A DNA stretch of 32,000 nucleotides from Acaryochloris marina S15 (GCF_018336915.1 NZ_CP064924.1:270001-302000), one strand, 5' to 3'. Shown: positions 763 through 20,676, counted from the stretch's first letter. The notes: generated by a model from the sequence alone, not told the origin. Numbers and translations are program-made.

Positions 763-1594
763 TTATTAAGTTATTCACAAAATCATCAAATAATTCAGCA
801 ACTAAAGTTCCATTATCTGTAGGCAATTGGTGATTTGCCTCTGCAATAACTTTTAATTGAGCGTTCGGGATTTTATCCTCATATGCTTGGCAATACCAAA
901 AAGGAATAGTGAGATCCTTCTCAGCTGCAATAATCAATGTTGCTGATGAAATATCTTGTATACTTCTATCAATTAGCTCAGTGCTCATTTCCCCTTTAAA
1001 TATACGACGAAACCAAGCCTTCATAATAGGTTCATAAAGCAACTGATATCGATAATGTTTAATAGTATTTACAGTCTCTTTCTTCTTGAAAATAGAAGAA
1101 AAGACAGAGACTAAGTTAAGAACCCAATCAATTATAGGAGTTTCCCATGACAAGGGTTTGAGTATTTGGTACTTGTCTAATTCTTCTGAGATTCCAGCAG
1201 GGGCAGCCAAGACAAGTCCTAATACTGATTCTTTATATTTTAAAGCATAGCTAGCAGCAATCCAGCCTCCAAGAGAATGACCAATAATATAGAAAGAGTC
1301 AATACATAAAGCCTTCATGAAGTGATGTATATATGAGACTTGTGACTCAATCTTGTAATCAATCTCTGGCTTAGATGATTCACCAAACCCTAGAAGATCT
1401 AAACTAATACATCGATACTTATTCTTTAATATCTGAGTTACAGCTCTCCAACAGCTTGATTCAGATAAGAAACCATGTAGAAGCAAAACAACAGGCCCTC
1501 TTCCTTCATCCTGGTATGCAGCTTTCACTATTTGTTTCTTATTCGATTCTAAGCATAATTCAAATGACTTTTGATTTTTAGTGAATAGGGCCAT
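731..1594 (-). CDS. alpha/beta-fold hydrolase
   Basis: 287-aa ORF. It has an oxyanion-type VVLLLHGF and a nucleophile elbow GHSLGG, then a late acidic residue and His (ANHQLP), as expected for the alpha/beta hydrolase fold. Its 3' end overlaps the start of the downstream TPS gene by 32 nt. Confidence 0.85.
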   Translation of the reverse strand: MALFTKNQKSFELCLESNKKQIVKAAYQDEGRGPVVLLLHGFLSESSCWRAVTQILKNKYRCISLDLLGFGESSKPEIDYKIESQVSYIHHFMKALCIDSFYIIGHSLGGWIAASYALKYKESVLGLVLAAPAGISEELDKYQILKPLSWETPIIDWVLNLVSVFSSIFKKKETVNTIKHYRYQLLYEPIMKAWFRRIFKGEMSTELIDRSIQDISSATLIIAAEKDLTIPFWYCQAYEDKIPNAQLKVIAEANHQLPTDNGTLVAELFDDFVNNLINEKSVIPNPT

Positions 1595-1783
1595 TCCGTT
1601 TCATGCCTTACGTCTTGCAAATCATTTAAAGAGTGGGTTCTTCAGCTCTCACATGTGAATATTTGAATCAACTCATGTATGAATGCCGTAGCCTCAAAAT
1701 CAAACTCACTTCGGATAAAGTAGCTTTCACACCTCTTTTAACCCAAATGCAGCATGATTCAATATTATTCATACGGATGAGAG

Positions 1784-2203
1784 TCAACCAGCTTTTGCGG
1801 TTGGATCCGGTTGGCAAGCCTGAAGTGTGGATGCGATTTCGGAAGCGTATTGATCTGCTTCTCGTGGATCGTTTACGAATGTCACGGTGCCGTTATCATT
1901 CGTCTTCCATCCCACCACTCGTTTAAGTGGCTTGTGTTCCCCCGTTTTCGGATCAGCATATGTCAATCGCCGTTGATCATACCTCGCTTTGGCGACTTGC
2001 TTCCAATTGCTTCCCTGATCTGGGAGACTTTCAGGATCGAGAGCGAGTAACCTTGTCCTGGGGGTGATCGGAGGTGCGGTAAAATGCCCTAAACCAGTGA
2101 AGATTATCCCTAATGCGTAGTTTTCGACATCTCCCGCTAATTTTTTTGACCTGGGCAACTCTTGCAATCCTCCCGGCAAACGCAGAGCAGACCCTGAAAC
2201 CAT
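1784..2203 (-). CDS. Hypothetical protein or gene remnant; start uncertain
   Basis: 139-aa ORF in a locally GC-richer patch. The C-terminal two thirds look protein-like (DPESLPDQGSNWKQVAKARYDQRRLTYADPKTGEHKPLKRVVGWKTNDNGTVTFVNDPREADQYASEIAS). The annotated 5' end overlaps the well-supported start of the divergent TPR gene at 2113 by about 90 nt. The real start, if the ORF is real, must be internal. No family recognised. Confidence 0.25.
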   Translation of the reverse strand: MVSGSALRLPGGLQELPRSKKLAGDVENYALGIIFTGLGHFTAPPITPRTRLLALDPESLPDQGSNWKQVAKARYDQRRLTYADPKTGEHKPLKRVVGWKTNDNGTVTFVNDPREADQYASEIASTLQACQPDPTAKAG

Positions 2204-2895
2204 CCGAGCTGCCCGCAGAACTATTGGTTGAAGCGGGGAATCGCAAAAACGAACTGCAAGATCACGAAGGTGCGATCGCAGATTACAACGCAGCCCTTAA
2301 GATCAAGCCTGATTATGCCCGAGCATTTTTTAATCTAGGGGTAGTTGCCTGTAATACAGGGGATACCAAAAACGAGATCAGATATTTCACGAAAGCGTTC
2401 GAGCTTGTCCCTTCAGATTACGAAGCTCTTATAGGAAGAGGCATGGCCCGGTTAAAGCTGGGAGAAATTGAAAAGGCTAAGGAAGATTTCAACGCCTCGC
2501 TGAGGCTAAACTCCAAGGACAAACGGACCTATATAGGTTTGGGAATAGTTGAGAAACGTAATGGCGACTTTACTGAAGCTCTTACGAATATCGACAAGGC
2601 CATACAGCTAGATCCAACATTCTCAGCGTCCTACCACGAAAGGGCCTTGGTGTATCAGCGGATGTCTCGGCTGTTTTCAAGAAAGTTTTTTGCCCAGGCG
2701 GCAATCGCTGATTATAAAAAAGCCATCAAGTTGGCCCCGGAGAATTTAGATGCCTATCTCGATAGGGCTATTCTGTATCTTGAATTTGGTCTAGCTCGGC
2801 TTGCGATCTCAGATTATGAAAAAGCAATTGAACTTCTAGCTGAACAAAATCAAGTGGCTGCAGTCAAGGAGATGAAAGATTCCTTATTGAGTTGA
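2113..2895 (+). CDS. Secreted TPR-repeat protein
   Basis: 260-aa ORF with an N-terminal signal-like segment (MRSFRHLPLIFLTWATLAILPANA/EQ). It has repeated 34-aa TPR signatures (AIADYNAALKIKPDYARAFFNLG; ALTNIDKAIQLDPTFSASYHERA; AIADYKKAIKLAPENLDAYLDRA). Confidence 0.85.
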   Translation: MRSFRHLPLIFLTWATLAILPANAEQTLKPSELPAELLVEAGNRKNELQDHEGAIADYNAALKIKPDYARAFFNLGVVACNTGDTKNEIRYFTKAFELVPSDYEALIGRGMARLKLGEIEKAKEDFNASLRLNSKDKRTYIGLGIVEKRNGDFTEALTNIDKAIQLDPTFSASYHERALVYQRMSRLFSRKFFAQAAIADYKKAIKLAPENLDAYLDRAILYLEFGLARLAISDYEKAIELLAEQNQVAAVKEMKDSLLS

Positions 2896-2955
2896 AAAAG
2901 AACGCAAACGATATTGAACAAAGTACTTACGCTGAGAAGTTAGCTGATTAGTCCA

Positions 2956-3801
2956 GTGGTGCTGTATTGGTACTGCTCTAGAGACCAATCAAAGAGATTC
3001 GGGGGGGCTGTTTTGCATAGGAAAACTAGAGGAATTTTCGTTAGGCCCATTCAATGGATGTGGGTTCAGCGATGGCCTTTGCTCATCATCATTGCTCCAG
3101 TTGTTGCAGGATTGACTTTTAATTTTATTGATGACTATTTGGCTCCAGAAAGAGCTATACATCCGACTGACAAGTTCTTACAAGAAAAGCAAATAGCTCA
3201 AGTCAAAAAAGATGTTCTTCAAATTACATCCCAAATTCTTGTAGGAATCACGGTACTATCTGGTGCTTACTTCACCTGGCAGCGGCTTGAGGTCAGCCGT
3301 GAGGATCAGATTACAGATCGCTACACCAAGGCTATCGATCAGCTTGGGAGCGAACATCTCGAAGTTCGTTTAGGTGGTATATATGCACTTGAGAGACTAG
3401 CCAAGGATTCTCCAAAGGATCAAGAGACTGTTATGGAGGTATTGACTGCCTTTGTTCGTGAAAATGCTTCATCTCAAATAACTATGCAAGCTAGCAGAGA
3501 TGAAAGTTCTGAGAAGGATACTGAAATTTCAGCTAATGAAGAGGATGTTAATGCATCTGGCAAGACAACTCCTAAAACAGATATCCAAACAATCTTAACT
3601 GTAATAGGAAGGCGTGAATGGGAAGTTTCAGGAAGAATAGATTTATCTGGGGCTAACTTGAGTGTACATTCCAGAACTATTTGTCCGTTTTCCAGAATTA
3701 GTGTCATAAAACTAATCCTTGAGCATTTCCTAGGACAGCATACTGATATTGTGCTGGAAGGCTGCGGTTCTGCGATCTTCGGTGAATACTGGCTGGGGTA
3801 G
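2956..3801 (+). pseudogene. 5' fragment of a membrane-anchored pentapeptide-repeat protein, interrupted at 3662/3663 by an inserted element
   Basis: TM segment (WPLLIIIAPVVAGLTF), then a module (ITDRYTKAIDQLGSEHLEVRLGGIYALERLAKDSPKDQETVMEVLTAFVRE ... DIQTILTVIGRR) collinear with the intact paralog at 12732-13832. Homology stops right after DLSGANLS. The last 46 codons are read from the inserted element. The true start may be ATG 3058 rather than GTG 2956. Confidence 0.8.
3663..3706 (+). repeat. Left terminal inverted repeat of the inserted element
   Basis: TGTACATTCCAGAACTATTTGTCCGTTTTCCAGAATTAGTGTCA. Its partner at 5565-5608, reverse-complemented, reads TGTACATTCCAGAATTATTTGACGCTGCTCCAGAATTAGTGTCA. 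Confidence 0.85.
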
Positions 3802-3883
3802 GGCTGTAGATCAGGTTTGGGATTGGCTCAACGCCAAAATAATCTGTGATAATTTAGCGTTGGTAGAGTTGCCATACCCCTTC

Positions 3884-5362
3884 CTATGAAGATGAAGGAT
3901 TTTTGGCTTTGGGAAGTCCTAGTTTTTGGCGAAACGGATCTGAATAGGTGGCTATCTGCCAGTTCAAAGCTGCTTTTACTTGTGCTGGTGTGATTTCTAG
4001 CACCCCTTTGAGATCGGCCCCTTTGAGATCGGCCCCTTTGAGATCGGCCCCTTTGAGATTGGCCCCTTCGAGATCGGCCCCTTTGAGATTGGCCCCTTCG
4101 AGATTGGCCCTGTAGAGCTTGGCCCCTTCGAGATTGGCCCTGTAGAGCTTGGCCTCTTCGAGATTGGCCCCTTGGAGATCGGCCCCTTTGAGCTTGGCCC
4201 CTTCGAGATTGGCCCTGTAGAGCTTGGCCTCTTCGAGATTGGCCCCTTGGAGATCGGCCCCTTTGAGCTTGGCCCCTTCGAGATCGGCCCCTTTGAGATT
4301 GGCCCCTTCGAGATTGGCCCTGTAGAGCTTGGCCTCTTCGAGATTGGCCCCTTGGAGATTGGCCACTTGGAGATTGGCCCCGTAGAGATAGGCCCCTTTG
4401 AGATTGGCCCCTTCGAGATTGGCCCTGTAGAGCTTGGCCTCTTCGAGATAGGCCCCTTTGAGATTGGCCCCTTTGAGATTGGCCCCGTAGAGCTTGGCCC
4501 CTTTGAGATTGGCCCCTTTGAGATTGGCCCTGTAGAGATTGGCCTCTTCGAGATTGGCCCCTTTGAGATAGGCCCCTTTGAGATTGGCCCCTTGGAGATT
4601 GGCCCCTTTGAGATTGGCCCCGTAGAGCTTGGCCTCTTCGAGATTGGCCCCGTAGAGATTGGCCCCGTAGAGATTGGCTTTGGATAACTCGGAACTGCTG
4701 AGGTTCAGCTCAAGTCTGCTAATGATATGCGCTTCTATCAAAAAACGCATAACACTACCTTTTCTTACTGAGTCATCTTCAAATCTCCGCAGGATAGATA
4801 ATGTCCTGGCTCGAATAACATCCAATGAAGAATCTAATAGCTCTTGCTCTTCCCGTATTCCATCGGGCAGTTGTTGTGATTCTCCTTCGCCTGAACTCTT
4901 GGTGTCACGGACCTTTGCAGAAATAGCCAGCAAATTCTTGTCAACCAAGAGTACTGATAGTCTGTCAAAGTATCCTTGAAGAATTTCTTCCTTTGCTTCC
5001 TCAGAAGCCAGCTCTCGCTGCTCTCTTGCTGCTGCTTCAGCTTGCTTTAGCTGTATTTGCTGAAATAACACCCCAAGAATTGCTAATGTCAGTGGCACTC
5101 CCAGAAGGCTCATCCAATCCCAAAATGTCTTTCCATCGTCAAATGTGGTTGTTCTAGTTGTCTTTACAGGCTTGCCCAACTTATCTGTTTGGTCAGATTG
5201 AACCGTTTCAGTTGTAACAGACTTCCCTTTCTCAATCCCCCAGCCACCGGGCCATAGCGTTGATCTTAGGCTCCCAAACAGAGACAAAAATACAATGATG
5301 AGTAATGCCCCAAGGATGTTATTCCTTTGTTTGGGGTTGAGTATTACTCTAGGAAACTTCAT
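3884..5362 (-). CDS. Membrane-anchored pentapeptide-repeat protein; cargo of the inserted element
   Basis: 492-aa ORF with two hydrophobic segments (ILGALLIIVFLSLFG; LLGVPLTLAILGVLF) and a coiled charged linker. About 46 consecutive A(N/D/K/Y)Lxx pentapeptides follow. The C-terminal tail LEITPAQVKAALNWQIATYSDPFRQKLGL is shared with the two paralogs in the window. Confidence 0.9.
   Translation of the reverse strand: MKFPRVILNPKQRNNILGALLIIVFLSLFGSLRSTLWPGGWGIEKGKSVTTETVQSDQTDKLGKPVKTTRTTTFDDGKTFWDWMSLLGVPLTLAILGVLFQQIQLKQAEAAAREQRELASEEAKEEILQGYFDRLSVLLVDKNLLAISAKVRDTKSSGEGESQQLPDGIREEQELLDSSLDVIRARTLSILRRFEDDSVRKGSVMRFLIEAHIISRLELNLSSSELSKANLYGANLYGANLEEAKLYGANLKGANLQGANLKGAYLKGANLEEANLYRANLKGANLKGAKLYGANLKGANLKGAYLEEAKLYRANLEGANLKGAYLYGANLQVANLQGANLEEAKLYRANLEGANLKGADLEGAKLKGADLQGANLEEAKLYRANLEGAKLKGADLQGANLEEAKLYRANLEGAKLYRANLEGANLKGADLEGANLKGADLKGADLKGADLKGVLEITPAQVKAALNWQIATYSDPFRQKLGLPKAKNPSSS
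4004..4682. repeat. 15-bp tandem DNA repeat array (about 46 units) encoding the pentapeptide repeats
   Basis: Near-identical 15-mers such as GAGATTGGCCCCTTC, GAGATCGGCCCCTTT and GAGCTTGGCCTCTTC recur without interruption. The periodicity is visible directly in the nucleotide sequence and leaves long antisense frames open. Confidence 0.9.
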
Positions 5363-5539
5363 AGATCCTTTGCTTAGCTGGAATCAGTGTACCTTTATCC
5401 TCAAGTGTTTTCTGCAAAATAAGAGATGACACCTAATTGTGGAAAGATTTGAAATGCTTTGGGAAGAAATGACATTTAATTAGCGAAATTTTGACTAGCA
5501 AGGAAAGATGTCGATAGGGCATCAAATCCATGTATAGCA

Positions 5540-6142
5540 ATGATTTTCATCATTTCTGGTTTTGTGACACTAATTCTGGAGCAGCGTCAAATAATTCTGG
5601 AATGTACATTGAGTGAGGTTACCCTGATTGGGGCTAACCTGATTGGGGCTAGTCTGAGCGAGGCTAATCTGAGCGAGGCTAATCTGATTGGGGCTAACTT
5701 GAGTACAGTTGACCTGATTGGGGCTAACCTGATTGGGGCTAGTCTGAGCGAGGCTAATCTGAGCGAGGCTAATCTGAGCGAGGCTAACCTGAGTACAGTT
5801 GACCTGAGTGAGGCTAACATGAGTGAGGCTAATCTGCGTAAGGCTAACTTGAGTGGGGCTAACCTGTATAGGGCTAATCTGCGTAAGGTTAACCTTACTC
5901 AGGTTAACCTGATTAGGGCTGTCCTGAATGGGGCTAATTTGCGTAGGGCTAACCTGTATAGGGCTAACCTGAATGGGGCTAATTTGCGTAAGGCTAAAGA
6001 CATCACCCCAGACCAGGTCAAGGAAGCCACGAACTGGGAACAGGCAACCTACAGTGATGACTTCAAAGCCGAACTAGGACTAACAGCCATCCCTGAAGAA
6101 TCCACAGAAAACCCTGAAGAACAGCCCCCACCCCAAAATTAA
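5540..6142 (+). pseudogene. 3' fragment of the interrupted pentapeptide-repeat gene. The homologous part is 5614-6142. The first 24 codons are element-derived and create a possible chimeric ORF.
   Basis: Pentapeptide repeats (ANLIG, ASLSE, ANLSE and others) followed by KDITPDQVKEATNWEQATYSDDFKAELGL, the same tail as the paralogs. The N-terminus MIFIISGFVTLILEQRQIILECTL is encoded inside the right end of the element, including the TIR. Confidence 0.8.
5565..5608 (-). repeat. Right terminal inverted repeat of the inserted element
   Basis: Reverse complement matches 3663-3706 at 38 of 44 positions. The outer 14 and inner 15 nt are identical, and the mismatches cluster in the middle. Confidence 0.85.
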
Positions 6143-6215
6143 GCTTTCCCAAGAAATCCCCCAGACCATATCCCTGAAGGCTACACTGAACCAGCCTTAG
6201 CACTGGATATCTGCA

Positions 6216-6836
6216 ATGCCACCTCAACTCATTTCTCTGAAGCCCAAGCCACCAGCCGAATCCCCGGTGACATCCTCGACAAACACCGAAGCACCCCCCA
6301 CATACCCAGACAAGGCATCATTCCCGACCATCGACCGGAAAGACGATCTGCCAGTGAAGCGCAAGGCGACTCCACAGCCTGAAGATGATGATCGCACCAT
6401 TGACCCCACCCCCAAATACGACCGCAGTGAACCCACCGATACTCGGAGAACGCAGCGAGGGTATTCAGCTCGGCAAACACCAGGACGAGTCCGACCCCCC
6501 AGAGTGTCTAGAGCTTTTGAGTCCAAATTCCACGCACTTGAGAAGCGTCAAAAGAATCTGGTTCAGCAGACCAAGCAAAAGGGTCAGCTAGAGTATCTGA
6601 CGGTTTCCAAAAGCGGCTCAGGGAAGTATTGGATCACCATCGAGGGCAGTGGCAAGCCCTTCATCAGAATTCCGTTTGAAAGTCCTGAGTTTTGTTTCGA
6701 GTGCGCCTTGGAATTGGAGGACACATTCGATGTTTTGCAGGTGTTGAGTCTGCGGCCAGGTGAGACGATGGAGCGGATCGAGGAGATGATCGGGGTGTGG
6801 TTGGATCGGGAGCGGGTGGCGAGGGTCTGGGGGTGA
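6216..6836 (+). CDS. Hypothetical protein with a Pro/Thr/Asp-rich disordered N-terminal half and a globular C-terminal half
   Basis: 206-aa ORF in a GC-rich patch. No recognisable family motifs. The competing ORFs in other frames are low-complexity shadows. Confidence 0.5.
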   Translation: MPPQLISLKPKPPAESPVTSSTNTEAPPTYPDKASFPTIDRKDDLPVKRKATPQPEDDDRTIDPTPKYDRSEPTDTRRTQRGYSARQTPGRVRPPRVSRAFESKFHALEKRQKNLVQQTKQKGQLEYLTVSKSGSGKYWITIEGSGKPFIRIPFESPEFCFECALELEDTFDVLQVLSLRPGETMERIEEMIGVWLDRERVARVWG

Positions 6837-6910
6837 TTGGGTTTAGGAGATGTCACTGAGATAGCTCAGGAGCCTTACTCAGTCTTTCAGGATGTCGGTG
6901 GTTCCTTGGT

Positions 6911-6929
6911 TCAGGGCAATCAGCCCTGA
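6911..6929 (+). terminator. Candidate intrinsic terminator hairpin downstream of 6216-6836
   Basis: TCAGGGC-AATCA-GCCCTGA forms a 7-bp stem with a 5-nt loop. It is followed by a T-rich but interrupted tract (TAGTTTCTGATTTATCTTT), about 75 nt after the stop codon. Confidence 0.3.
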
Positions 6930-7037
6930 TAGTTTCTGATTTATCTTTCGCTAGAGATATGCCGATCTTTCCACTGAGTTATGACTACTGGAAGATGGTC
7001 AGTAGTTAAGTTGTCAATTCCCTCAAAAGTATTTTTG

Positions 7038-7313
7038 CTAGAAATCCTTTGGTGTTAATATCTCAATCTGAGTAGTAGCAAAGAACCTATGCTTGTTATC
7101 TATCCAAGTGGACGAATTCTGAGTATGAGCATAATTAAAGTCTGTACTTAAGCTATGTGAACATTGAGGACAGACTTGGTCGCCACCACCACCTTTAATA
7201 ACTGATGATTCAGAGTCAGATATTTCTTCGAAGATAATCAGATCTTCTGATGCAGAATTAGCCTCACTATTCTTTAAGATAGATTGAATTAGTGAATGAA
7301 GTCTTGTTGTCAC
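7038..7313 (-). CDS. Small protein with a double-glycine-type leader; candidate bacteriocin or RiPP-like precursor
   Basis: 91-aa ORF with a GTG start, preceded by AGGAG 9 nt upstream. The N-terminal 40-44 aa end in EEISDSESSVIKGG(GG), with hydrophobic residues at -4, -12 and -15 and Glu at -8 relative to GG. The core of about 45-47 aa contains CPQC. Confidence 0.45.
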   Translation of the reverse strand: MTTRLHSLIQSILKNSEANSASEDLIIFEEISDSESSVIKGGGGDQVCPQCSHSLSTDFNYAHTQNSSTWIDNKHRFFATTQIEILTPKDF

Positions 7314-8122
7314 TATTTCATGCTCCTAGGTTACCTAAATTAGTAAAAGATTAAAGAAAAAGAGAGTTTTTCAATCTTAGAATGAATATTTAGGTTATGT
7401 ATTTATCTGTAATATCTCAGCATTTTATGCAAATTACTTGATATTTACAAGTAATTTATTTAAAAAATTAAAGATTTTTTATTCGACTAGCATCAGTTTT
7501 TATTTTATAAGTTAGTGAACTTATAACCTTCTCTCTGTAGACCGTAAACGATCAAGGCTGTGATAAGACGCCAACTACACTCATAACTTATACATAGATA
7601 GCTTTTTAGAAATTTTCAATAATCTGACTCTACTAAAAATAGATCCAACATCTGATCGCTGTGATGACCAAAATTGGTAGATACATAGCAATCTGAAATC
7701 AATCGTGAGATGTAGAGAGGCTGAAATCTTTACCAGTATCCATTTAGGTTGAATATAATTCTCACAACTCACGTCAGATCGCTATAGTAAGTACTCTTAT
7801 ACTAAATGGCGGGAAATCGCAGCTTAGATCGTTTTAGGCTGGCAATGGAGAATTGCAAATACCTCTCATTAAACGGACTCGTGCGGACAAACACAACCGC
7901 CGCTTCTACCACCTGACCCTCACCCTGTAGCTTCTGGCTTTCCTTAACGTAATTATCGTCTAGTAAAAGTTAATTATTTGAGCTTTCCTATTGCTTTTTT
8001 TAATGTGGTTTATATAGCTCAAAGTAGCCTAATCCTAAAAGAATCCTAGCCTTAAATCTGTCATTTTTTTAATCAGGGGAACCTAAAAATTTACTCGGGA
8101 CTCAGTAAGTAAGGATAAAAAA

Positions 8123-8617
8123 ATGAGGAACATGATGAATAAACAAAGCATTTTTATTGCCGCTGCTCTGTCATTTATCGCTACAGCAGTAACGGCACAA
8201 GAACTAAAATTTGATGGTATCGCCGACGTTAACCATACACGTAATGACAGTATTATTCTTGAGAAGGTTGACGGCGGTAGCCATAACGTAACTGTCCAGT
8301 CGAGAAATGGAGATGTGAATCTTTTCAAGGTAGATGGCGGAAGCTCTAATATTCGCATTATCGCCGAGGGGGATGTTCGCTTTTCACAAAAAATAGATGG
8401 TGGCAGCCGAGTCCATGTCGAAGCTAGAACGGGAGACATCTTCTTTGGTCAAAAAATAGATGGTGGTTCCGAAGTCGTTCTAATGGCCCCAAATGGCACA
8501 ATTACTCTAGCCCAGAAGATAGATGGTGGCTCAACCGTCCGCTGGTGTGCACAAAGTTTAGATGCAGGAAGTCAAGGTATTCGCGGAAGCTCGACTGTAA
8601 CTAGAGTTTGTCCTTAA
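8123..8617 (+). CDS. Secreted repeat protein with (K/Q)(I/V)DGGS repeats of about 21 aa; beta-solenoid-like
   Basis: Signal-peptide-like N-terminus (KQSIFIAAALSFIATAVTA/QE). There are at least 5 units of the form KVDGGSSNIRIIAEGDVRFSQ / KIDGGSRVHVEARTGDIFFGQ / KIDGGSEVVLMAPNGTITLAQ. AAGGA lies upstream of the ATG. Confidence 0.7.
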   Translation: MRNMMNKQSIFIAAALSFIATAVTAQELKFDGIADVNHTRNDSIILEKVDGGSHNVTVQSRNGDVNLFKVDGGSSNIRIIAEGDVRFSQKIDGGSRVHVEARTGDIFFGQKIDGGSEVVLMAPNGTITLAQKIDGGSTVRWCAQSLDAGSQGIRGSSTVTRVCP

Positions 8618-8817
8618 GAGACACAGTGAATAATTGAATGAGTAGTAAATAATTCAGGTAAAATTAGACCTCTTGCAATATTCATTTCATGATGTGCTAC
8701 TAACTTTATAAATGCCGTGAACTGATTTGGATAACAAATCGTTAGTTTAGTTATGCAAGAGGTCTAATAAAGGGATTCAAACCCCATTTTTGTTGTGAAC
8801 ACAAGTTGCTGGGATAA

Positions 8818-9156
8818 ATGATCCACCCCGCTTGCCAACGTTGCGATCTCTTCAGTGGATACCTCGCTGAAGGTTTCCTTGTCTGTGCCATCCATCCGAG
8901 TGGTCCCGATCAAAACCCTTGCCCCGATTTTGCGAAAGTGATCGAGGACTGGCAAACATTAGGGGCAATCTCTGAAAACGGTGAGCTGCTCAGGGACTGG
9001 GCAGGATATCTGACTTCGGTGGAGCGATCAGAGGTGCTGAAGAATCATCCGTACTTCACCGGAGTCTGCCCGAAGTGCGGTGCAAGTTTTGGGGATAGCA
9101 GGCCAGTCCATTACGATTGTGAAAGATGTGGTTGGATGGATGATTCGATCAATTGA
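8818..9156 (+). CDS. Cys-rich hypothetical protein with putative zinc-ribbon motifs
   Basis: 112-aa ORF with CQRC...C...C in the N-terminal part and CPKC...CERC at the C-terminus. The antisense ORF 8764-8955 lacks such features. Confidence 0.55.
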   Translation: MIHPACQRCDLFSGYLAEGFLVCAIHPSGPDQNPCPDFAKVIEDWQTLGAISENGELLRDWAGYLTSVERSEVLKNHPYFTGVCPKCGASFGDSRPVHYDCERCGWMDDSIN

Positions 9157-9217
9157 GGAAAACTAAGACTGGAAGCTGACTTAGCTTTTTTACTTATGCC
9201 TGATTTGACTACAGCTA

Positions 9218-9511
9218 ATGAACTGGATAATTCTGATAATTTGCGTGATTGCACTAATTCTTTACTGGAGTAAATGGATGCAGGGCCGAGGCAATCTTGG
9301 TAAGGTTATCGATTATAGCCAAGGGAAGAAAGGCACACGCAGGGAGCAATGGCAGAATTACTCTTCAAGCGAAGCAAAGCTGATTCAGAGGCTTGGATCT
9401 GAATCTACAGAGCGTCTGATCGTCAGCGTACTTCTGGATAATCCAACCAAATCGAGAGCCTGGTGTTCAGATAAAGCCTTAAGGGATCTAGAACGAGATC
9501 AAGGTTTGTAA
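9218..9511 (+). CDS. Small hypothetical protein with an N-terminal TM helix
   Basis: 97-aa ORF starting MNWIILIICVIALILYW. It ends 4 nt before the nuclease gene, so co-transcription is likely. Confidence 0.45.
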   Translation: MNWIILIICVIALILYWSKWMQGRGNLGKVIDYSQGKKGTRREQWQNYSSSEAKLIQRLGSESTERLIVSVLLDNPTKSRAWCSDKALRDLERDQGL

Positions 9512-9515
9512 GACA

Positions 9516-10043
9516 ATGCCAAATCTAAGACAGCTACTCTCTATCCTCCTTCCCCCTCTCCTTCTAGGATGCAGCCCACCCCCCAGCACCACGACCAACG
9601 ACATTAATCCGGTAAAGACAATCTCCTACACGGTTGTCAGCACTGGCGATGGCGATACCCTCAAAGTGCAATCTCAAGACGGTACATCGAGCAAAGTCCG
9701 TGTTGGATGTATTGATGCGCCTGAGTCCTCGCAGGAGTATGGACCGGAGGCAGGCCAAAGACTCAAGGTATTGCTACCCAGTGGAGCAACAATCGAGCTT
9801 CGGGAAATTGATATTGATCAATATGGTCGAACAGTGGCGGAGATCTATTCTGAGGGGAAATCGGTTGGGCTTCAGCTTGTCCGTGAAGGATATTCCGTGG
9901 TGTATCACCGTTACTTGGATGGGTGTTCTGATACAGCAGATCAGTATGTTGCTGCTGAGGAAGAGGCCAGATCTCAGAGATTGAATTTTTGGAGCCAGAG
10001 TGATCCGGTGATGCCGTGGGACTATCGGAGAGGGAAGCGGTAA
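9516..10043 (+). CDS. Staphylococcal-nuclease-like (thermonuclease/SNase) lipoprotein
   Basis: Lipobox LLLGC after a signal segment. The SNase-fold signature is present: GDGDTLKV...VRVGCIDAPES...GPEA...DQYGRTVAEI...G.SVGLQLVREGYSVVY. Confidence 0.85.
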   Translation: MPNLRQLLSILLPPLLLGCSPPPSTTTNDINPVKTISYTVVSTGDGDTLKVQSQDGTSSKVRVGCIDAPESSQEYGPEAGQRLKVLLPSGATIELREIDIDQYGRTVAEIYSEGKSVGLQLVREGYSVVYHRYLDGCSDTADQYVAAEEEARSQRLNFWSQSDPVMPWDYRRGKR

Positions 10044-10410
10044 TAGTGCTTTTAAGATAGTACTAAAGACCTATTACTTTAAAGCACTATTACTTTAAAG
10101 CACTATTACACTAAAGTCCTATTGCACTAAAAAACAATTAAGCTGAAGTAATATAATTTAATAGTGAAATTGTGCGAATATTTATTATTTCAAAAGTTCT
10201 ATTGCACTAAACTACTTTTGCACTAAACTACTATTTAGCTAAAGAGACTTATGCTAAAAGCCCCTAACTGTATAGATTCAAAGATTTTTGAAGGAGGTGT
10301 AGCAGAAGGGAACAAGCTTTATCTCCAATAATTTCAGAGAATTTTATAGATGATTACAGTGGAATAGAGCAACCTTCTTATTGCACTATTTTACTTTTGC
10401 ACTATACTGC
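10041..10410. repeat. Iteron-like repeats; candidate centromere (parS/parC), operator and/or origin region upstream of parA
   Basis: Four tandem 16-bp units lie at 10071-10134 (CTATTACTTTAAAGCA x2, CTATTACACTAAAGTC, CTATTGCACTAAAAAA). An inverted half site TAATAGTGC is at 10041-10049. Further copies lie at about 10199-10260 (CTATTGCACTAAA, CTACTTTTGCACTAAA, CTACTATTTAGCTAAAG) and about 10376-10410. An AT-rich spacer sits between the clusters. Related copies follow the partner gene at 11770-11803. Confidence 0.7.
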
Positions 10411-10478
10411 ATTAGTTCAGTAATGCTATTGATCTAGACATCTATCAGGCAAAAGTACCTTTCATCAAAAGCAGAATA

Positions 10479-11339
10479 ATGCCCAAACAAGCACCGACTC
10501 TTGTTCCTCTAGCGCTAGCAGGAGGACAAGGTAAAACCACAATTGCATTAATGACTGGGAGGATATTAGCGAGTTATGGCATCCCTGTACTATTTGTGGA
10601 TGCAGATCCACAAGCAAGTCTTACAGCTTTTCTTGGTGTAGACCCAGAAGATCGCCCAACTCTCTTGGAAGTTCTAACGCGATCTCCCGACAAACTACCT
10701 TTGTTCAAAGCCATACATGCTGTTCCAGAAAGTGAAAATATTTTTCTTATTCCATCTACTGATGAACTAGAGAATGCAAACCACTCATTAGCAGCATCAC
10801 CATCAAGTATCAATGTACTAAGAAATCGAATTCAACAAGTTGGCGAACAGGTAAAGAAAGAAGAAAAAATCACATCCAATTTTGGGATTATCATCATTGA
10901 CCCACCCCCAGAACGCTCACACCTTGCTCTCACTTCTCTGGGTAGTGGCGACTGCTGGGTTATTTGTGCCGAAGCTAATATTAAAGGTGTTCAATCACTC
11001 AAAAGAACAAAAGGATTAATTGAAACTTGTCAGTCAATGGTTCCTGCAGGTGAATTAATTGGGACAATACCTTTTCGAGCGAAATGGACTGGTTTGAACC
11101 CAACTAAAGTCACGAGAACCAACATTGAAGTCATGGAAGTCCTCGTTGGGAAAGATTTAATGCTTCCCCATGTATTAGAAAGTGATATTTACAAACGTGC
11201 AATAGACGAGCAAACTTTACCAGGAACACTGGGATATGAGCATTTAGAATTTCCGCTAAGGAGTCTTATCGAAAGAATGAGACCCTCACTCGGAAAATAC
11301 GCGAAGTCAATTCCAGTCTTGAATACGGAGGAAAATTAA
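10479..11339 (+). CDS. parA: ParA-family partition ATPase (small, type Ib-like)
   Basis: 286-aa ORF with a deviant Walker A context (LALAGGQGKTTIALMTG), then VLFVDADPQASLT and a Walker B-like IIIIDPPP. Confidence 0.85.
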   Translation: MPKQAPTLVPLALAGGQGKTTIALMTGRILASYGIPVLFVDADPQASLTAFLGVDPEDRPTLLEVLTRSPDKLPLFKAIHAVPESENIFLIPSTDELENANHSLAASPSSINVLRNRIQQVGEQVKKEEKITSNFGIIIIDPPPERSHLALTSLGSGDCWVICAEANIKGVQSLKRTKGLIETCQSMVPAGELIGTIPFRAKWTGLNPTKVTRTNIEVMEVLVGKDLMLPHVLESDIYKRAIDEQTLPGTLGYEHLEFPLRSLIERMRPSLGKYAKSIPVLNTEEN

Positions 11340-15294: not shown

Positions 15295-18200
15295 ATGACG
15301 AGTCCGAGCCCAGAACAGCAAACCATTCTATTTCTTGCCAGCAACCCTGATGGATTGCGACAAGTCGGACGAGAATTACGCGACATTAAAAACGGGTTAC
15401 GCAGATCTGAGCATCGAGATCAGTTCACTCTATGTCCCTGCCTGGATGTACGTACTAAAGATATTCAACGGGCATTATTGGATGAAACGCCTCAGATAAT
15501 TCACTTCGCTGGCAGTGGCAAAGGAGAAGCAGGACTCGTCTTTGAAGATCAAGCAGGCAATCCCAAACTTGTCGCAAGTGCAGCCCTAGCAGGTCTATTT
15601 ACTCTGTTTGCTGAGGACATCCACTGCGTCATTCTGAATGGGTGTTATACCCAGGTGCAAGCTCAAGCCATCGCTCAACATATTGATTATGTAGTAGGCA
15701 TGCAGCAGGCCATCAGCCACGAAGCGGCCCTGGCCTTTGCCGTGGGTTTCTATGATGCCTTGGGTGCAGGCCGAGACATTGAATTTGCCTTTAAGTTGGG
15801 ATGCAGTGCCATTCAAATAGAAGGCTTACCCGAATCTCTCACCCCGGTGTTGGTCCAAAAATCTAGCCTTCAATCCGCACCCCTCCACCCCTTACCCGAA
15901 CAGCAGACTCATGAAAAACTCTGGAAAGTGCCAGAGTTACCCCCCCACTTTTTACCGCGTCCTCAGACCCTAAAAGCCCTAAGAGAGAAGGTCCTTACGG
16001 ATCTAGCCCAGCCTGTCGTCATGACCGGGCAACGCGTCGGTGTTCAGGGTATGGGAGGCATTGGCAAGTCGGTGTTGGCCACAGCCCTAGCTCGTGACCC
16101 TCAAGTTCAATCGGCATTCCCTGACGGTATTTATTGGCTAACCGTGGGGATAGAACCCAACCTACTGGCTCAGCAAATCGCTCTAGCAGCAGCCCTCTGT
16201 GGTGAACGCCAGGTATTTGAAGATATCAATGAAGGGAAAAACCGCCTCCAAACCCTATGGCAAGGACGCCAAAGTCTATTGATTCTAGATGATGTCTGGT
16301 GCATCGCGGATGCTGACGTCTTCAATGTCCTGGGACATCAAAGTACCTTGGTAGTGACGACCCGTGACTCAGAATTAATCACAGGATTAGGGGCCACTGA
16401 CTTTTCCCTTTCGGTACTCCATGAGGATCAGGCGCTGGAGTTATTAGCCGCCTGGGTGGGCGTCCCCATCTCAGATCTACCCTCCCAAGCCCAGGAAGTA
16501 GCAAGAGAATGTGGCAACTTGCCCTTAGCCCTGGCCCAATGTGGTGCAATGGTGCGAGATTTAACCCCTTGGCCCCATGTTCTCAGTGCCTTACAAGATT
16601 CAGATCTTGAATTTATCCAAAAACAGTTTAGTCATTATTCCTACCCCGATGTCTTCAAAGCCCTGCATGTCAGTGCAACGGTCTTAGCAGAAACCAACCC
16701 CATCGCTGCCGAACGCTATCAAGAACTGGCAGTGTTTCCAGCCGATGAATTGATTCCTGAAGCAGTCATTGTTCGCCTATGGCAATATACCGGAGTATTA
16801 AAGGAGCGAGATGCGGGCAAAATCCTAACCACCTTATCGAGTAAAGCCATGCTGCGGCTAGAGGGGGACTATCCCCAGCGGCAAGTCAGCCTCCATGACT
16901 TACAGCAGGATTATTTACAAGCCCAGCAAGCCGACCAGAAGGCATTGCATCAGCAACTTCTGGAGGCTTATCACCAGGGCTGTCCAGAGGGATGGCATTG
17001 TGGACCGAAGGACGGGTATTTCTTTGAGCATTTGGCCCATCACCTCCAGCAGGCAGAACGCACCGATGAGTTACGGCAATTACTCTGGGACTATCGTTGG
17101 ATTCAACGCAAATTGGGAGTCACTGATATCAATGCCCTGCTATTGGACTATGAAACCTTACCCAAGGACCAAGACCTCAACAGTGTCCACAGTGGGTTAC
17201 GGTTATCTAGCCATGTATTAAATCAGCATCCTGAGCAGCTTCCCAGTCAGCTCTTTGGGCGTTTGATGAGTCAAGATTCACCCCATGTGACCGCATTGAC
17301 TCAATCTTTAGCTCAGGGACCGGGAGAATGCTGGATACGGTGTCTATTCCCCCATCTCAACCAAGCGGGGGGAGCATTAGTGCGCACCCTCACCGGACAT
17401 ACTTCCACTGTCTATGGCGTGAGCATCAGCCCCGATGGCCAAACCGTAGTCTCCGCGTCTTGGGACCAGACCCTGAAGGTGTGGGACCTGGAGACGGGCC
17501 AGGAGCAGCGCACCCTCACCGGACATACTAGCCTTGTCAATGGCGTGAGCATCAGCCCCGATGGCCAAACCGTAGTCTCCGCGTCTTGGGACAAGACCCT
17601 GAAGGTATGGGACCTGGCGACGGGCCAGGAGCAGCGCACCCTCACCGGACATATTGCCTCTGTCAATGGCGTGAGCATCAGCCCCGATGGCCAAACCGTA
17701 ATCTCCGCATCTAGTGACCATACCCTGAAGGTGTGGGATCTGGAGACGGGCCAGGAACAGCGCACCCTCACCGGACATACTGACTATGTCGAGGGCGTGA
17801 GCATCAGCCCCGATGGCCAAACCGTAGTCTCCGCGTCTAGGGACCAGACCCTGAAGGTGTGGGACCTGGAGACGGGCCAGGAGCAGCGCACCCTCACCGG
17901 ACATACTGACCCTGTCTATGGCGTCAGCATCAGCTCCGATGGCCAAACCGTAGTCTCCGCGTCTGGTGACCAGACCCTGAAGGTGTGGGACCTGGCGACG
18001 GGCCAGGAGCAGCGCACCCTCACCGGACATACTGCCTCTGTCGAGGGCGTGAGCATCAGCTCCGATGGCCAAACCGTAGTCTCCGCGTCTGGTGACCATA
18101 CCCTGAAGGTGTGGGACCTGGAGACGGGCCAGGAGCAGCGCACCCTCACCGGACATACTGCCTCTGTCGAGGGCGTGAGCATCAGCTCCGATGGCCAAAC

Positions 18201-19293
18201 CGTGGTCTCCGCGTCTGATGACCATACCCTGAAGGTGTGGGACCTGGAGACGGGCCAGGAGCAGCGCACCCTCACCGGACATACTGCCTCTGTCGAGGGC
18301 GTGAGCATCAGCTCCGATGGCCAAACCGTAGTCTCCGCGTCTGGTGACCATACCCTGAAGGTGTGGGACCTGGAGACGGGCCAGGAGCAGCGCACCCTCA
18401 CCGGACATACTTCCCTTGTCCATGGCGTGAGCATCAGCCCCGATGGCCAAACCGTAGTCTCCGCGTCTAAGGACCAGACCCTGAAGGTGTGGGACCTGGA
18501 GACGGGCCAGGAGCAGCGCACCCTCACCGGACATACTGCCTCTGTCACTGGCGTCAGCATCAGCCCCGATGGCCAAACCGTCGTCTCCGCGTCTTGGGAC
18601 AATACCCTGAAGGTGTGGGACCTGGAGACGGGCCAGGAGCAGCGCACCCTCACCGGACATACTGCCTATGTCACTGGCGTGAGCATCAGCCCCGATGGCC
18701 AAACCCTTGTCTCCACGTCTTTGGACAAGACCCTGAAGGTGTGGGACCTGGAGACGGGCCAGGAGCAGCGCACCCTCACCGGGCATACTGACCCTGTCAC
18801 TGGCGTGAGCATCAACCCCGATGGCCAAACCGTCGTCTCCGCGTCTTGGGACTGTACCCTGAAGGTGTGGGACCTGGAGACGGGCCAGGAGCAGCGCACC
18901 CTCACCGGACATACTTCCACTGTCACTGGCGTCAGCATCAGCCCCGATGGCCAAACCGTCGTCTCCGCGTCTTGGGACTGTACCCTGAAGGTGTGGGACC
19001 TGGAGACGGGCCAGGAGCAGCGCACCCTCACCGGACATACTGCCCCTGTCAATGGCGTGAGCATCAGCCCCGATGGCCAAACCCTTGTCTCCGCGTCTGA
19101 TGACCATACCCTGAAGGCATGGGACCTGCTGACCGGCATGGAAGTGATGAGCTTCACGGGAGAAGGTGCATTTCAATGTTGTGAGATTGCCCTAGATGGT
19201 CGCACCGTCATTGCTGGAGATGCTGGGGGACAGCTTTACTTTCTGCGGCTAGAAGGCCCCAGCTTTTCAGACGACGGGGAGGTTATCTCATGA
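15295..19293 (+). CDS. Apaf-1/NLR-like STAND NTPase: N-terminal caspase/CHAT-like domain, NB-ARC, then 14 near-identical WD40 repeats and 1 degenerate one
   Basis: 1332 aa.
- N-terminal domain (about 190 aa) has a caspase-like strand/helix pattern with IIHFAGSG ... VILNGCYT.
- NB-ARC motifs: P-loop GMGGIGKS, Walker B LLILDDVW, VVTTRD, a GLPL-type GNLPLAL, and an MHD-type LHD (VSLHDLQ).
- C-terminus: 14 x 42-aa units LTGHTxxVxGVSISPDGQTVVSASxDxTLKVWDLETGQEQRT plus a degenerate 15th blade. Confidence 0.9.
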   Translation: MTSPSPEQQTILFLASNPDGLRQVGRELRDIKNGLRRSEHRDQFTLCPCLDVRTKDIQRALLDETPQIIHFAGSGKGEAGLVFEDQAGNPKLVASAALAGLFTLFAEDIHCVILNGCYTQVQAQAIAQHIDYVVGMQQAISHEAALAFAVGFYDALGAGRDIEFAFKLGCSAIQIEGLPESLTPVLVQKSSLQSAPLHPLPEQQTHEKLWKVPELPPHFLPRPQTLKALREKVLTDLAQPVVMTGQRVGVQGMGGIGKSVLATALARDPQVQSAFPDGIYWLTVGIEPNLLAQQIALAAALCGERQVFEDINEGKNRLQTLWQGRQSLLILDDVWCIADADVFNVLGHQSTLVVTTRDSELITGLGATDFSLSVLHEDQALELLAAWVGVPISDLPSQAQEVARECGNLPLALAQCGAMVRDLTPWPHVLSALQDSDLEFIQKQFSHYSYPDVFKALHVSATVLAETNPIAAERYQELAVFPADELIPEAVIVRLWQYTGVLKERDAGKILTTLSSKAMLRLEGDYPQRQVSLHDLQQDYLQAQQADQKALHQQLLEAYHQGCPEGWHCGPKDGYFFEHLAHHLQQAERTDELRQLLWDYRWIQRKLGVTDINALLLDYETLPKDQDLNSVHSGLRLSSHVLNQHPEQLPSQLFGRLMSQDSPHVTALTQSLAQGPGECWIRCLFPHLNQAGGALVRTLTGHTSTVYGVSISPDGQTVVSASWDQTLKVWDLETGQEQRTLTGHTSLVNGVSISPDGQTVVSASWDKTLKVWDLATGQEQRTLTGHIASVNGVSISPDGQTVISASSDHTLKVWDLETGQEQRTLTGHTDYVEGVSISPDGQTVVSASRDQTLKVWDLETGQEQRTLTGHTDPVYGVSISSDGQTVVSASGDQTLKVWDLATGQEQRTLTGHTASVEGVSISSDGQTVVSASGDHTLKVWDLETGQEQRTLTGHTASVEGVSISSDGQTVVSASDDHTLKVWDLETGQEQRTLTGHTASVEGVSISSDGQTVVSASGDHTLKVWDLETGQEQRTLTGHTSLVHGVSISPDGQTVVSASKDQTLKVWDLETGQEQRTLTGHTASVTGVSISPDGQTVVSASWDNTLKVWDLETGQEQRTLTGHTAYVTGVSISPDGQTLVSTSLDKTLKVWDLETGQEQRTLTGHTDPVTGVSINPDGQTVVSASWDCTLKVWDLETGQEQRTLTGHTSTVTGVSISPDGQTVVSASWDCTLKVWDLETGQEQRTLTGHTAPVNGVSISPDGQTLVSASDDHTLKAWDLLTGMEVMSFTGEGAFQCCEIALDGRTVIAGDAGGQLYFLRLEGPSFSDDGEVIS
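17389..19152 (+). repeat. 14 tandem 126-bp repeats, in frame, encoding WD40 blades
   Basis: Direct inspection shows an exact 126-bp period starting at CTCACCGGACATAC. Units 6-8 are nearly identical at the DNA level. Differences between units fall in a few codons. Confidence 0.95.
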
Positions 19294-19429
19294 CTTAAAC
19301 CGTTCTAATATCCCTTCAATTCCTGCCTCAACGTTTGGGGTGTTCTCTCACAACCGAAGGCTATCGACGTCGCAATTCAATCATTGAGTGTTCCACTATC
19401 TTCTGCCCGAATTTATCCGCCCTACCCTC

Positions 19430-20527
19430 ATGACTGCCCAAACCATTCTCTTTCTCGCTGCGAATCCCAAAGATACTAAGACTCTTCGATTGGATCAGGA
19501 GTTAAGGGATATTGGTGAGGGTTTACAGCAGGCTCAACGTCGAGATGAGTTTAAGCTTGAACAGCGCCTGGCGGTTCGCCCCCATGATATTCAGCGGGCC
19601 ATGCTAGATCTGAATCCCCAGATCGTTCATTTCTCAGGCCATGGGAATGGGGATGAGGGCTTGGCCTTTGAGGATGTCAGTGGTAATACCCAGTTGGTCA
19701 GTGGTGAGGCGATTGCTGACCTGTTTAGCCTGTTTGCCGATCAACTGCGCTGCGTAGTCCTCAATGGCTGCTATACCGAGGTGCAAGCAAAGGCCATCTC
19801 GGAACATATTCCCTATGTTATCGGTATGAAACGGGCGATTGGGGATAAAGCGGCGATCTCCTTTGCCGTGGGATTCTATGATGCCCTGGGCTCTGGTCGA
19901 GATGTGGAGTTTGCCTTTAAGTTGGGCTGTGCCGCTATCCGCATGGAAGGCATTGAAGAACATCTCACCCCCGTTCTGATTAAAAAGCCCATTACTGAGG
20001 AAACTAAGGATCAGGATCAACCCAATGCTCAAACTCCTCCAACACCCGCGCCTTCTCCCATGACTCCAGACGCCGATGGACCCTTAGAGGTCTTTATTTC
20101 CTATTCCCATAAAGACGATGATTTACGAGAAGAGTTAGACATCCATCTTTCCAATCTGAAACGACAGGGGAAAATTGCTGCTTGGCATGATCGGGCGATT
20201 GAAGCAGGGGAAGAATGGGAAGCTCAAATCAAAGGCCATCTGGAGTCCGCTCAAATCATTCTGCTACTGGTCAGCCCACCCTTTATGGCCTCTGACTATT
20301 GCTACGACATTGAGATGCAACGAGCGATAGACCGCCATAACGAAGGCACAGCCCGAGTCATCCCTATTATTCTGCGTCCCTGTGACTGGAAAGGGTCACC
20401 CTTCAGTAAGCTGAAGATACTCCCTAAAGATGCCAAGCCCGTGACGAAATGGGCTGATCGCGATGAGGCATTCTTGGATGTCGTCAAAGGAATACGGAGG
20501 GCGGTAGAGTCCCTGACAAAAAAGTAG
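19430..20527 (+). CDS. Caspase/CHAT-like domain fused to a TIR domain (putative effector)
   Basis: The N-terminal domain is about 60% identical (100/163 positions, hand alignment) to the N-terminus of 15295-19293, but has an intact HFSGHG ... VLNGCYT dyad pattern. A Pro/Thr linker follows, then a TIR signature: VFISYSHKDD...GKIAAWHDRAIEAGEEW...IILLLVSPPFMASDYCYDIEMQRA, with a conserved Glu candidate. The preferred start is ATG 19430 (MTAQTILFLAANP, parallel to the MTSPSPEQQTILFLASNP N-terminus of 15295-19293) rather than the ORF-track GTG 19388. Confidence 0.85.
   Translation: MTAQTILFLAANPKDTKTLRLDQELRDIGEGLQQAQRRDEFKLEQRLAVRPHDIQRAMLDLNPQIVHFSGHGNGDEGLAFEDVSGNTQLVSGEAIADLFSLFADQLRCVVLNGCYTEVQAKAISEHIPYVIGMKRAIGDKAAISFAVGFYDALGSGRDVEFAFKLGCAAIRMEGIEEHLTPVLIKKPITEETKDQDQPNAQTPPTPAPSPMTPDADGPLEVFISYSHKDDDLREELDIHLSNLKRQGKIAAWHDRAIEAGEEWEAQIKGHLESAQIILLLVSPPFMASDYCYDIEMQRAIDRHNEGTARVIPIILRPCDWKGSPFSKLKILPKDAKPVTKWADRDEAFLDVVKGIRRAVESLTKK
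20518..20524 (+). promoter_or_regulatory. Candidate -1 ribosomal frameshift or slippage site: A AAA AAG followed immediately by a 0-frame TAG
   Basis: The last two sense codons of the TIR ORF are AAA AAG preceded by A. This is the same heptamer as the E. coli dnaX -1 site. The -1 frame is open from 20467 and runs without a stop into the NB-ARC-TPR ORF. GGAGG lies about 17-21 nt upstream. No convincing downstream hairpin was found by eye. Confidence 0.35.
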
Positions 20528-20676
20528 ACCACTCTTCGTCAGGACTCAGTCCACCAACGGAGAGTCATCAGGGCCAGGGACCAGAAGCCTCGTCATCTTC
20601 TCAGGCAAGTCCCCCTCATAACCTCCCTCGCAGCGGTGTCGTTGAATTTGTCGGTCGTGAACAAACGCTGCAGGAC

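Follow-up and report, generated by a model that had tools for sequence, protein, structure and literature searches.

We analysed a 32,000-nucleotide stretch of DNA from Acaryochloris marina S15 (GCF_018336915.1, NZ_CP064924.1:270001-302000), which we will call the window. In the window, a gene for a pentapeptide-repeat protein (PRP) is split by a 1946-bp cassette (3663-5608; positions are counted from the first nucleotide of the window) whose own cargo is another PRP gene. A first-pass annotation, made from the sequence alone, had described the cassette as an insertion with terminal inverted repeats and a flanking direct repeat, and each detail of this description that we checked proved correct. 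The cassette has TGT...ACA termini, and we identified it by repeat finding and from a second copy elsewhere. As we will argue, it is very probably a non-autonomous Tn7-like transposon.

A cassette splits a PRP gene

The open reading frame (ORF) list and the restored ORF define two parts of the target gene. The 5' part (2956-3662, plus strand) encodes an N-terminal membrane and helical domain and extends to the first pentapeptide unit (...RIDLSGANLS). The start codon is likely downstream of 2956, for example at the ATG at 3056 (P0361), at the ATG at 3088, or at the non-ATG start chosen by NCBI (P0003). The 3' part (5614-6142, plus strand) encodes about 25 pentapeptide units and the tail ITPDQVKEATNWEQATYSDDF. 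Deleting the element and one copy of TTGAG gives a 1236-nt ORF (411 codons plus the stop) with the junction GCTAACTTGAGTGAGGTTACC, so the claim of the first-pass annotation that removal restores a continuous ORF was right. Over its whole length, the restored protein can be aligned with P0004, an uninterrupted homolog (57% identity, E = 1e-143), and the alignment is continuous over the junction: RIDLSGANLS followed by EVTLIGANL aligns with RIDLSGSNLH-GANL.

The two chimeric ORFs that had been described are both present. The 5' chimera (2956-3801, plus strand, from the ORF list) has a 45-aa tail encoded by the element, and the 3' chimera (5540-6142, plus strand), which is predicted from the ORF list, would begin at an ATG inside the end of the element. 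NCBI lists the 5' chimera, with its element-encoded tail, among the hypothetical proteins of Acaryochloris marina (QUY45631.1 / WP_212666676.1), so the insertion is not an artefact of the window. The replicon that carries QUY45631.1 is 309,759 bp, and an identical 5' chimeric ORF was assembled independently from run SRR12447961. The insertion disrupted a plasmid-borne PRP gene and left a truncated 5' ORF and possibly a 3' ORF.

The imperfect inverted repeats at the termini of the cassette are 50 nt long (arms 3663-3712 and 5559-5608) and 86% complementary (43/50). They had been described as 44 bp with 38 identical positions; we recomputed 38/44 over that span and found that the repeats extend to 50 nt. 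The terminal 21-mer is found at only these two places in the 32-kb window, once on each strand, and was absent from all of 100 shuffles. Direct comparison shows that the cassette is flanked by two copies of TTGAG (3658-3662 and 5609-5613), which form the target-site duplication. The first-pass annotation allowed that the duplication might be as long as TTGAGTG. TTGAG stands and the 7-bp option does not, since three related elements also show 5 bp: TGTAC for the second copy of the cassette (on contig L013), AATTC for an element in another Acaryochloris genome (L001), and GTTGA for an element of Trichormus variabilis.

The cargo gene (3884-5362, minus strand) was recognized from the ORF list and Pfam and encodes a 492-aa membrane PRP. 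The protein combines a pair of hydrophobic segments at the N-terminus with a helical domain and some 45 pentapeptide units, and it ends in the tail ITPAQVKAALNWQIATYSDPF. It matches Pfam's Pentapeptide family (E = 2e-94). Within the gene, positions 4003-4678 form a very regular 15-bp tandem array of 45 units, with a 105-bp higher-order period at 90% identity. This is the sole credible gene in the insert, as the other ORFs run antisense to it. No transposase domain was found in any ORF of at least 60 aa within the element. It had been claimed that the element encodes no transposase and carries only this PRP, and we agree. A scan of the element for promoters and terminators gave matches that were no more numerous than in shuffles. 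An exact look-up of the cargo protein found no record. Its N-terminal domain is from a family that is widespread among cyanobacteria (331 matches at E <= 1e-5), the subfamily of the cargo is common in cyanobacteria outside of transposons, and the neighbourhoods of the closest homologs (L014-L017) had no Tn7-like ends.

The ends contain arrays of putative TnsB sites

Both termini of the cassette consist of the 8-bp sequence TGTACATT followed by direct sub-repeats of about 22 bp; one end has two such sites and the other has four. We will refer to these repeats as putative binding sites for the transposase TnsB. Aligning the ends showed that the tnsB-distal type of end (3663-3712, plus strand) has TGTACATT and then two TnsB-type sub-repeats, TTCCAGAACTATTTGTCC and TTCCAGAATTAGTGTCAT; we recognized no third site within 250 nt. 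The tnsB-adjacent type of end (5559-5608, minus strand) also has TGTACATT and two sub-repeats, and an inner pair (5422-5489, minus strand) brings the total to four. The inner sites, GCTAATTAAATGTCATTTC and CCACAATTAGGTGTCATC, lie 125-185 nt inward, immediately upstream of the start codon of the cargo gene. In all, the putative sites span 3671-3712 (two sites) and 5422-5600 (four sites, minus strand), and at each end the two sub-repeats beside the terminus read TTCCAGAAyTATTTGnC and TCCAGAATTAGTGTCA. The end at 3663-3712 aligns with the matching ends of L013, L001, L002 (on the Acaryochloris 'Moss Beach' plasmid pMB05), and the T. variabilis element. The inner sites at 5422-5489 are conserved in L013 and L001.

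This arrangement resembles that of ShCAST, a CRISPR-associated transposon (CAST). The ends of ShCAST have an 8-bp terminal sequence beside the 5-bp duplication, followed by several 22-bp transposase sites with uneven spacing, and the two ends differ (Park et al., PMC9371665). Judging from primer sequences (PMC9527255), both ends of ShCAST begin with TGTACAGTGAC (also written TGTACAGT), and its left end holds an inner site, ACAAATTAAATGTCATC. The ends of the cassette begin with TGTACATTCCAG, and the inner site GCTAATTAAATGTCATTTC resembles the inner site of ShCAST. The cassette and ShCAST have in common the hexamer TGTACA at their termini, asymmetric arrays of 22-bp TnsB sites next to an 8-bp terminus, and a 5-bp duplication.

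Homologous ends bound an autonomous TnsB-TnsC element

We compared the 50-nt end to plasmids using BLASTN and found matches to cyanobacterial plasmids, along with one weak match to a Mesorhizobium plasmid (E = 0.3). Megablast of the whole element against plasmids found only a 39-nt match to the repeat. The informative match was on plasmid A of T. variabilis ATCC 29413, where sequences that are 88% identical to the cassette's end over 43 nt bound a 4005-bp element that is flanked by the duplication GTTGA. In comparisons to solved structures, its 614-aa DDE protein (rve and Mu-transpos_C domains) is a full-length match to TnsB from ShCAST (403 bits, E = 1e-119), and its 302-aa TniB/AAA_22 ATPase matches ShTnsC (E = 6e-15). 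The T. variabilis element was recently described as a minimal TnsB-TnsC transposon that is sister to the type V-K CASTs and is present in three identical copies (bioRxiv 10.1101/2024.11.13.623437).

Besides the 5-bp duplication, the window's element and the T. variabilis transposon (CP000117.1 group) share homologous ends (TGTACATT, then NNAGAAYTATTTGTC, 8 nt, then AGAATTAGTGTC) and extra inner sites of the AATTAAATG type at one end. They differ in content. The T. variabilis element is autonomous and its 4005 bp encode TnsB, TnsC, and a 180-aa protein of unknown function, while the window's element has none of these three proteins and has a PRP gene in their place. The hosts also differ: Acaryochloris for the window's element and Nostocales for the other. 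Given the homology of its ends to the ends of a TnsB- and TnsC-encoding element, we consider the window's element to be a transposase-less member of the clade that contains the TnsB-TnsC (TnsBC) elements and the type V-K CASTs.

We also scanned a genome collection with the terminal motif and found one locus, in the Acaryochloris metagenome-assembled genome IP29b_bin.148 (NZ_JANQOY010000033.1; L001). A 3035-bp element at 784-3818 of this locus has both of the end types that are seen in the window, the duplication AATTC, and unrelated cargo, namely a 472-aa and a 166-aa protein without matches in Pfam or NCBIfam. No transposase was evident in the ORF list for L001, with the domain search covering the two large ORFs only. 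The element sits 14 bp downstream of a tRNA-Gly(TCC) gene. On the tRNA side, the terminus occurs as two tandem copies of 29 bp, at 784 and 813. The tRNA gene adjoins the tnsB-distal type of end, an arrangement that has been reported for natural V-K CASTs.

Just inside the two-site end, we noticed a conserved non-coding module of about 200 nt in L001 (836-1062 and 2634-2862) and L002 (12031-12256) that is absent from the window's cassette. The module comprises a site-like repeat, a hairpin (GTGTCACA...TGTGAC), about 150 nt of other sequence, and another site-like repeat. A fold of its alignment showed little covariation (2 of 53 pairs) and there was no Rfam match in L001. More broadly, an Rfam search of the window, L001, and L013 matched only the tRNA.

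Other relatives of the T. variabilis element turned up as well. A contig from ENA (ERZ25039498 contig_13715; L023) contains, at 6823-10760, a complete element like that of T. variabilis (TnsB, TnsC, and the 180-aa protein), with outer 5-bp sequences that do not match (CACAG versus GCTGA). Recombination between two copies, or a deletion next to the element, may account for the unmatched flanks. Plasmids from Crinalium, Nostoc, and Trichormus each have an end of the T. variabilis type (TGTCCATTAAAGAATTATTTGTC..., at position 6001 of L018, L019, and L020), with no partner end and no annotated tnsB within 6 kb; these may be solo ends or decayed elements. A scan of metagenomes with the terminal motif gave five matches, all of which we rejected as chance matches in low-GC coding DNA with no second site. 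A scan of viral contigs with the two-site pattern found nothing.

A second copy of the cassette at another site

A search with the N-terminal domain of the cargo protein found one protein that is 100% identical, P0241, on a 2599-bp contig (L013) from run SRR12447970. The contig contains a copy of the cassette (622-1965) with exact termini, flanks that are unlike the window's, and the duplication TGTAC. In the 5' part of the cargo gene, this copy is 98.9% identical to the window's; in the 3' part and the adjoining end, the identity is 96%. If the cassette is removed, the flanks form a continuous ORF for another PRP, with the junction GATCTGAGATGTACCTTACTC. At the start of the contig, 113 nt match the 3' end of the CyRepA1 replication genes of Acaryochloris plasmids, so the interrupted PRP gene has a plasmid replication gene of the Acaryochloris type as its neighbour. 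Among the plasmids in PLSDB, homologs of the target in L013 are only 37-43% identical. Because the cassette is found at a second site with a different duplication, it must have transposed in its present gene-poor form.

The two copies differ in two other ways. The cargo protein of L013 is 200 aa shorter than the window's, due to either a recent expansion or contraction of the repeat array or a collapse of the array in assembling this short-read contig. Also, the outer ~125 nt of the four-site end diverge sharply (window 5483-5608 versus L013 622-744), and in this region L013 resembles the L001 element. This mosaic pattern suggests that recombination has exchanged ends among related elements.

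The first-pass annotation proposed looking for other copies of the inverted repeats and for an autonomous partner. Other copies exist, including this second copy of the entire cassette with another 5-bp duplication. Autonomous relatives with matching ends and with TnsB and TnsC exist too; a cognate one from the host genome was not obtained. The idea that the cassette is mobilized in trans is supported by the other copies of the repeats, by the second site, and by the autonomous relatives.

A probable non-autonomous relative of the type V-K CASTs

We propose that the cassette is a non-autonomous Tn7-like transposon, or mobile insertion cassette (MIC), that retains, from the TnsBC / type V-K CAST clade, just the cis-acting ends and that carries one passenger PRP gene. 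We consider this proposal very likely. Four features place the cassette among the Tn7-like elements: the 5-bp duplication, the TGT...ACA and 8-bp termini, the asymmetric repeats of about 22 bp, and ends that are homologous to those of a TnsB/TnsC element. As a Tn7-like element, rather than a classical insertion sequence (IS), the cassette is still the mobile cassette of the first-pass annotation, and the family assignment, which is based on sequence comparisons, refines that reading. We file it as non-autonomous because it does not encode TnsB or TnsC: no ORF for TnsB (a DDE transposase with rve and Mu-transpos_C domains) or TnsC (AAA+) was found in the element or elsewhere in the 32-kb window. 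And it has the features of a MIC, which are inverted repeats, a target duplication, no transposase, a passenger gene, and copies at different sites (the window and L013).

Type V-K CASTs carry cas12k, a tracrRNA, and a CRISPR array. Their insertion point is 60-66 bp away from a protospacer flanked by GTN, and the site is usually at a tRNA gene. The window contains no tniQ and no tRNA gene. We saw no ORF of the size of cas12k in the element or the window and we noticed no CRISPR array or tracrRNA, with neither of these two being specifically searched for. The insertions into the two PRP genes have no shared candidate protospacer beside them and no motif at a fixed distance from either end. In contrast to ShCAST, whose TnsB is a full-length homolog of the transposase of the cassette's autonomous relative, the window lacks tniQ, tnsB, and tnsC, and the cassette is inserted within a protein-coding gene instead of downstream of a tRNA gene.

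The cassette presumably moves in trans. A TnsB/TnsC pair, perhaps with TniQ or another target selector, would be encoded elsewhere in the Acaryochloris genome and would bind the sub-repeats. It would then pair the two ends and join their 3' ends to staggered positions in the target, 5 bp apart. Since this clade lacks TnsA, the movement is probably replicative, as in Mu, via a cointegrate that would later be resolved by host recombination. TnsBC elements do transpose replicatively, like Mu (Hsieh et al., bioRxiv 10.1101/2024.11.13.623437).

Several observations weigh against our proposal. One end of the cassette shows only two repeats that resemble binding sites, versus the four per end that were described for ShCAST, and binding of TnsB to the repeats is itself a prediction from their sequence. 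In the Acaryochloris sequences that we searched, we found no cognate TnsB/TnsC with ends that begin with exactly TGTACATTCCAGAA..., and TnsB of this clade is not found on the Acaryochloris plasmids in PLSDB. Two TnsB/TnsC loci from the same series of runs (L011 and L012) lack matching sites nearby; their TnsB proteins share 59% identity with that of T. variabilis, the organisms that they come from are unconfirmed, and the loci have no match to known plasmids. Finally, we found no uninterrupted ortholog with the predicted junction GCTAACTTGAGTGAGGTTACC. The check for an empty target site that the first-pass annotation proposed came back without one, as the best uninterrupted homologs are 55-57% identical. 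Among the plasmids in PLSDB, homologs of the window's target are only 35-45% identical (37% in Acaryochloris).

We also considered that the cassette might be a MIC from a classical IS family with TG...CA ends, such as IS3, IS21, or IS481, and be moved by an IS transposase instead of TnsB. TG...CA termini and duplications of 3-5 bp do occur in these families. Furthermore, the TnsB of T. variabilis weakly matches the model for IS481, although the score is well below threshold (37 bits versus a cut-off of 224) and reflects the rve fold that these proteins have in common. However, this seems inconsistent with the 88% identity of the cassette's ends to ends that bound a TnsB and TnsC element, whose transposase matches TnsB of ShCAST over its full length. 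Asymmetric ends with multiple sites are a Tn7/Mu-type architecture, and BLASTN found no IS with these inverted repeats on Acaryochloris plasmids. We therefore view an origin from a classical IS as very improbable. An even less probable explanation, which we would be astonished to see borne out, is the one that the first-pass annotation raised against itself: that the inverted repeats serve as sites for a recombinase that inverts or excises the segment. A gene-sized segment bracketed by inverted repeats could look like that. But the 5-bp direct duplication lies outside the repeats, which argues against inversion; elsewhere the segment has different flanking sequences and different duplications; the repeats show homology to transposon ends of the TnsB type; and no recombinase gene was recognized by eye among the translations of the window's ORFs (domain libraries were not run for this).

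Another explanation accepts the ends as those of a TnsB-type transposon but views the cassette as a dead remnant: an autonomous element arrived and then lost its transposition genes by deletion in situ. Internal deletion is the usual origin of non-autonomous elements, and we did not find a helper. However, a remnant that formed in place would not account for finding the ends with the same PRP gene at a second, independent site with a different duplication. Also, the outer 125 nt of one end differ between the two copies while the rest of the cassette is 96-99% identical, which points to exchange among related active ends. We consider this explanation unlikely, if a little less so than an IS origin. 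We prefer a cassette that moves in trans.

Other MICs provide a useful comparison. The qnrS2 MIC from IncU plasmids of Aeromonas also lacks a transposase, is bracketed by inverted repeats, has a PRP as its passenger, and disrupts another gene (PMC5444012). The MICs described to date are derivatives of insertion sequences or of Tn3-type elements and have short and simple inverted repeats (22 bp for the qnrS2 cassette), in contrast to the multi-site ends of the Tn7/Mu type in the window. There is also a precedent among the relatives of a TniA(TnsB)/TniB(TnsC) transposon. Defective elements of the Tn402/Tn5053 family, including class 1 integrons such as In2, are mobilized in trans by tni genes, keep their terminal repeats, and produce 5-bp duplications. 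The Tn402/Tn5053 family differs from the window's element in that its transposase is from a distant lineage, it has 25-bp inverted repeats, and it targets res sites, and there is no sequence similarity to the cassette's ends.

In the literature that we searched, Tn7-like elements and CASTs are usually portrayed as large and autonomous, and such small cassettes are a gap: no natural transposase-less derivatives with ends of the V-K clade were described, nor was any link between PRP genes and TnsB/TnsC. The cassettes suggest that V-K-clade machinery moves small passengers in trans, in cyanobacteria and on plasmids. They also provide natural examples of minimal ends (two sites in about 50 bp on one side, four in about 190 bp on the other), which could help in designing compact donors for V-K-type systems.

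PRP genes as cargo and as targets

The first-pass annotation stated that the cargo and the target belong to the same family. This holds for the pentapeptide repeats and for the C-terminal tail (ITPxQ(V/I)KxAxNW), but the N-terminal domains are not detectably homologous. At the DNA level, the cargo and target genes share no exact match of over 12 nt, which is the same as for an unrelated control. Given this lack of DNA homology, recombination between the cargo and the target does not explain the arrangement.

Does the cassette, or the machinery that moves it, prefer to insert into pentapeptide-repeat arrays, whose coding DNA has a 15-bp periodicity? Both of the known insertions of the cassette (2/2) are inside the arrays of PRP genes, and the two PRP genes are unrelated. 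In a scan of 112 kb of Acaryochloris DNA outside of the cargo gene, such arrays accounted for about 0.9%. The insertion in the window was noticed because of its PRP features, which leaves L013 as the one unbiased sample (p about 0.01). Several observations do not fit a preference for PRP genes. The two insertions differ in their orientation relative to the coding strand and in their register within the repeat. They have no common 12-mer at comparable distances from either end, which argues against a sequence-specific selector with a fixed geometry. Elements with the same ends (L001, L002, and L003) are not in PRP genes, and the cargo and the targets share no DNA homology. Overall, we think that a preference for PRP arrays is possible but doubtful, and we offer it as a lead rather than a finding.

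PRP genes might also be recurrent cargo. A contig from Logan (SRR22386051; L009) has an autonomous tnsB-tnsC-tniQ element (2207-7022) that carries a gene for a 338-aa membrane PRP, which is 46% identical to the window's cargo. This gene lies between the inner transposase-binding sites of the tnsB-side end. Its position is as in the window's cassette, and its orientation is opposite. There is no PRP gene next to tnsB in five other loci that we fetched via their TnsB (L010, L011, L021, L022, and L023), nor in the T. variabilis element. If the recurrence of PRPs as both cargo and target is real, it would imply an as-yet-unknown rule of target choice or of gene capture. A link between PRPs and this clade of transposons would involve either a choice of target by DNA structure, or the capture of PRP genes as a by-product of targeting.

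Other features of the window

Farther along in the window, we noticed three consecutive large ORFs (15295-23196). The first encodes 1332 aa, with a long run of near-identical units of about 42 aa that look WD40-like by eye. The second encodes 379 aa, and its N-terminal domain of about 190 aa is common to the first. The third encodes 839 aa with about ten near-identical TPR-like units (...NLAxLYxNQGRYEEAEPLYTQALQM...). Together, these ORFs may be a signalling or defence-type island.

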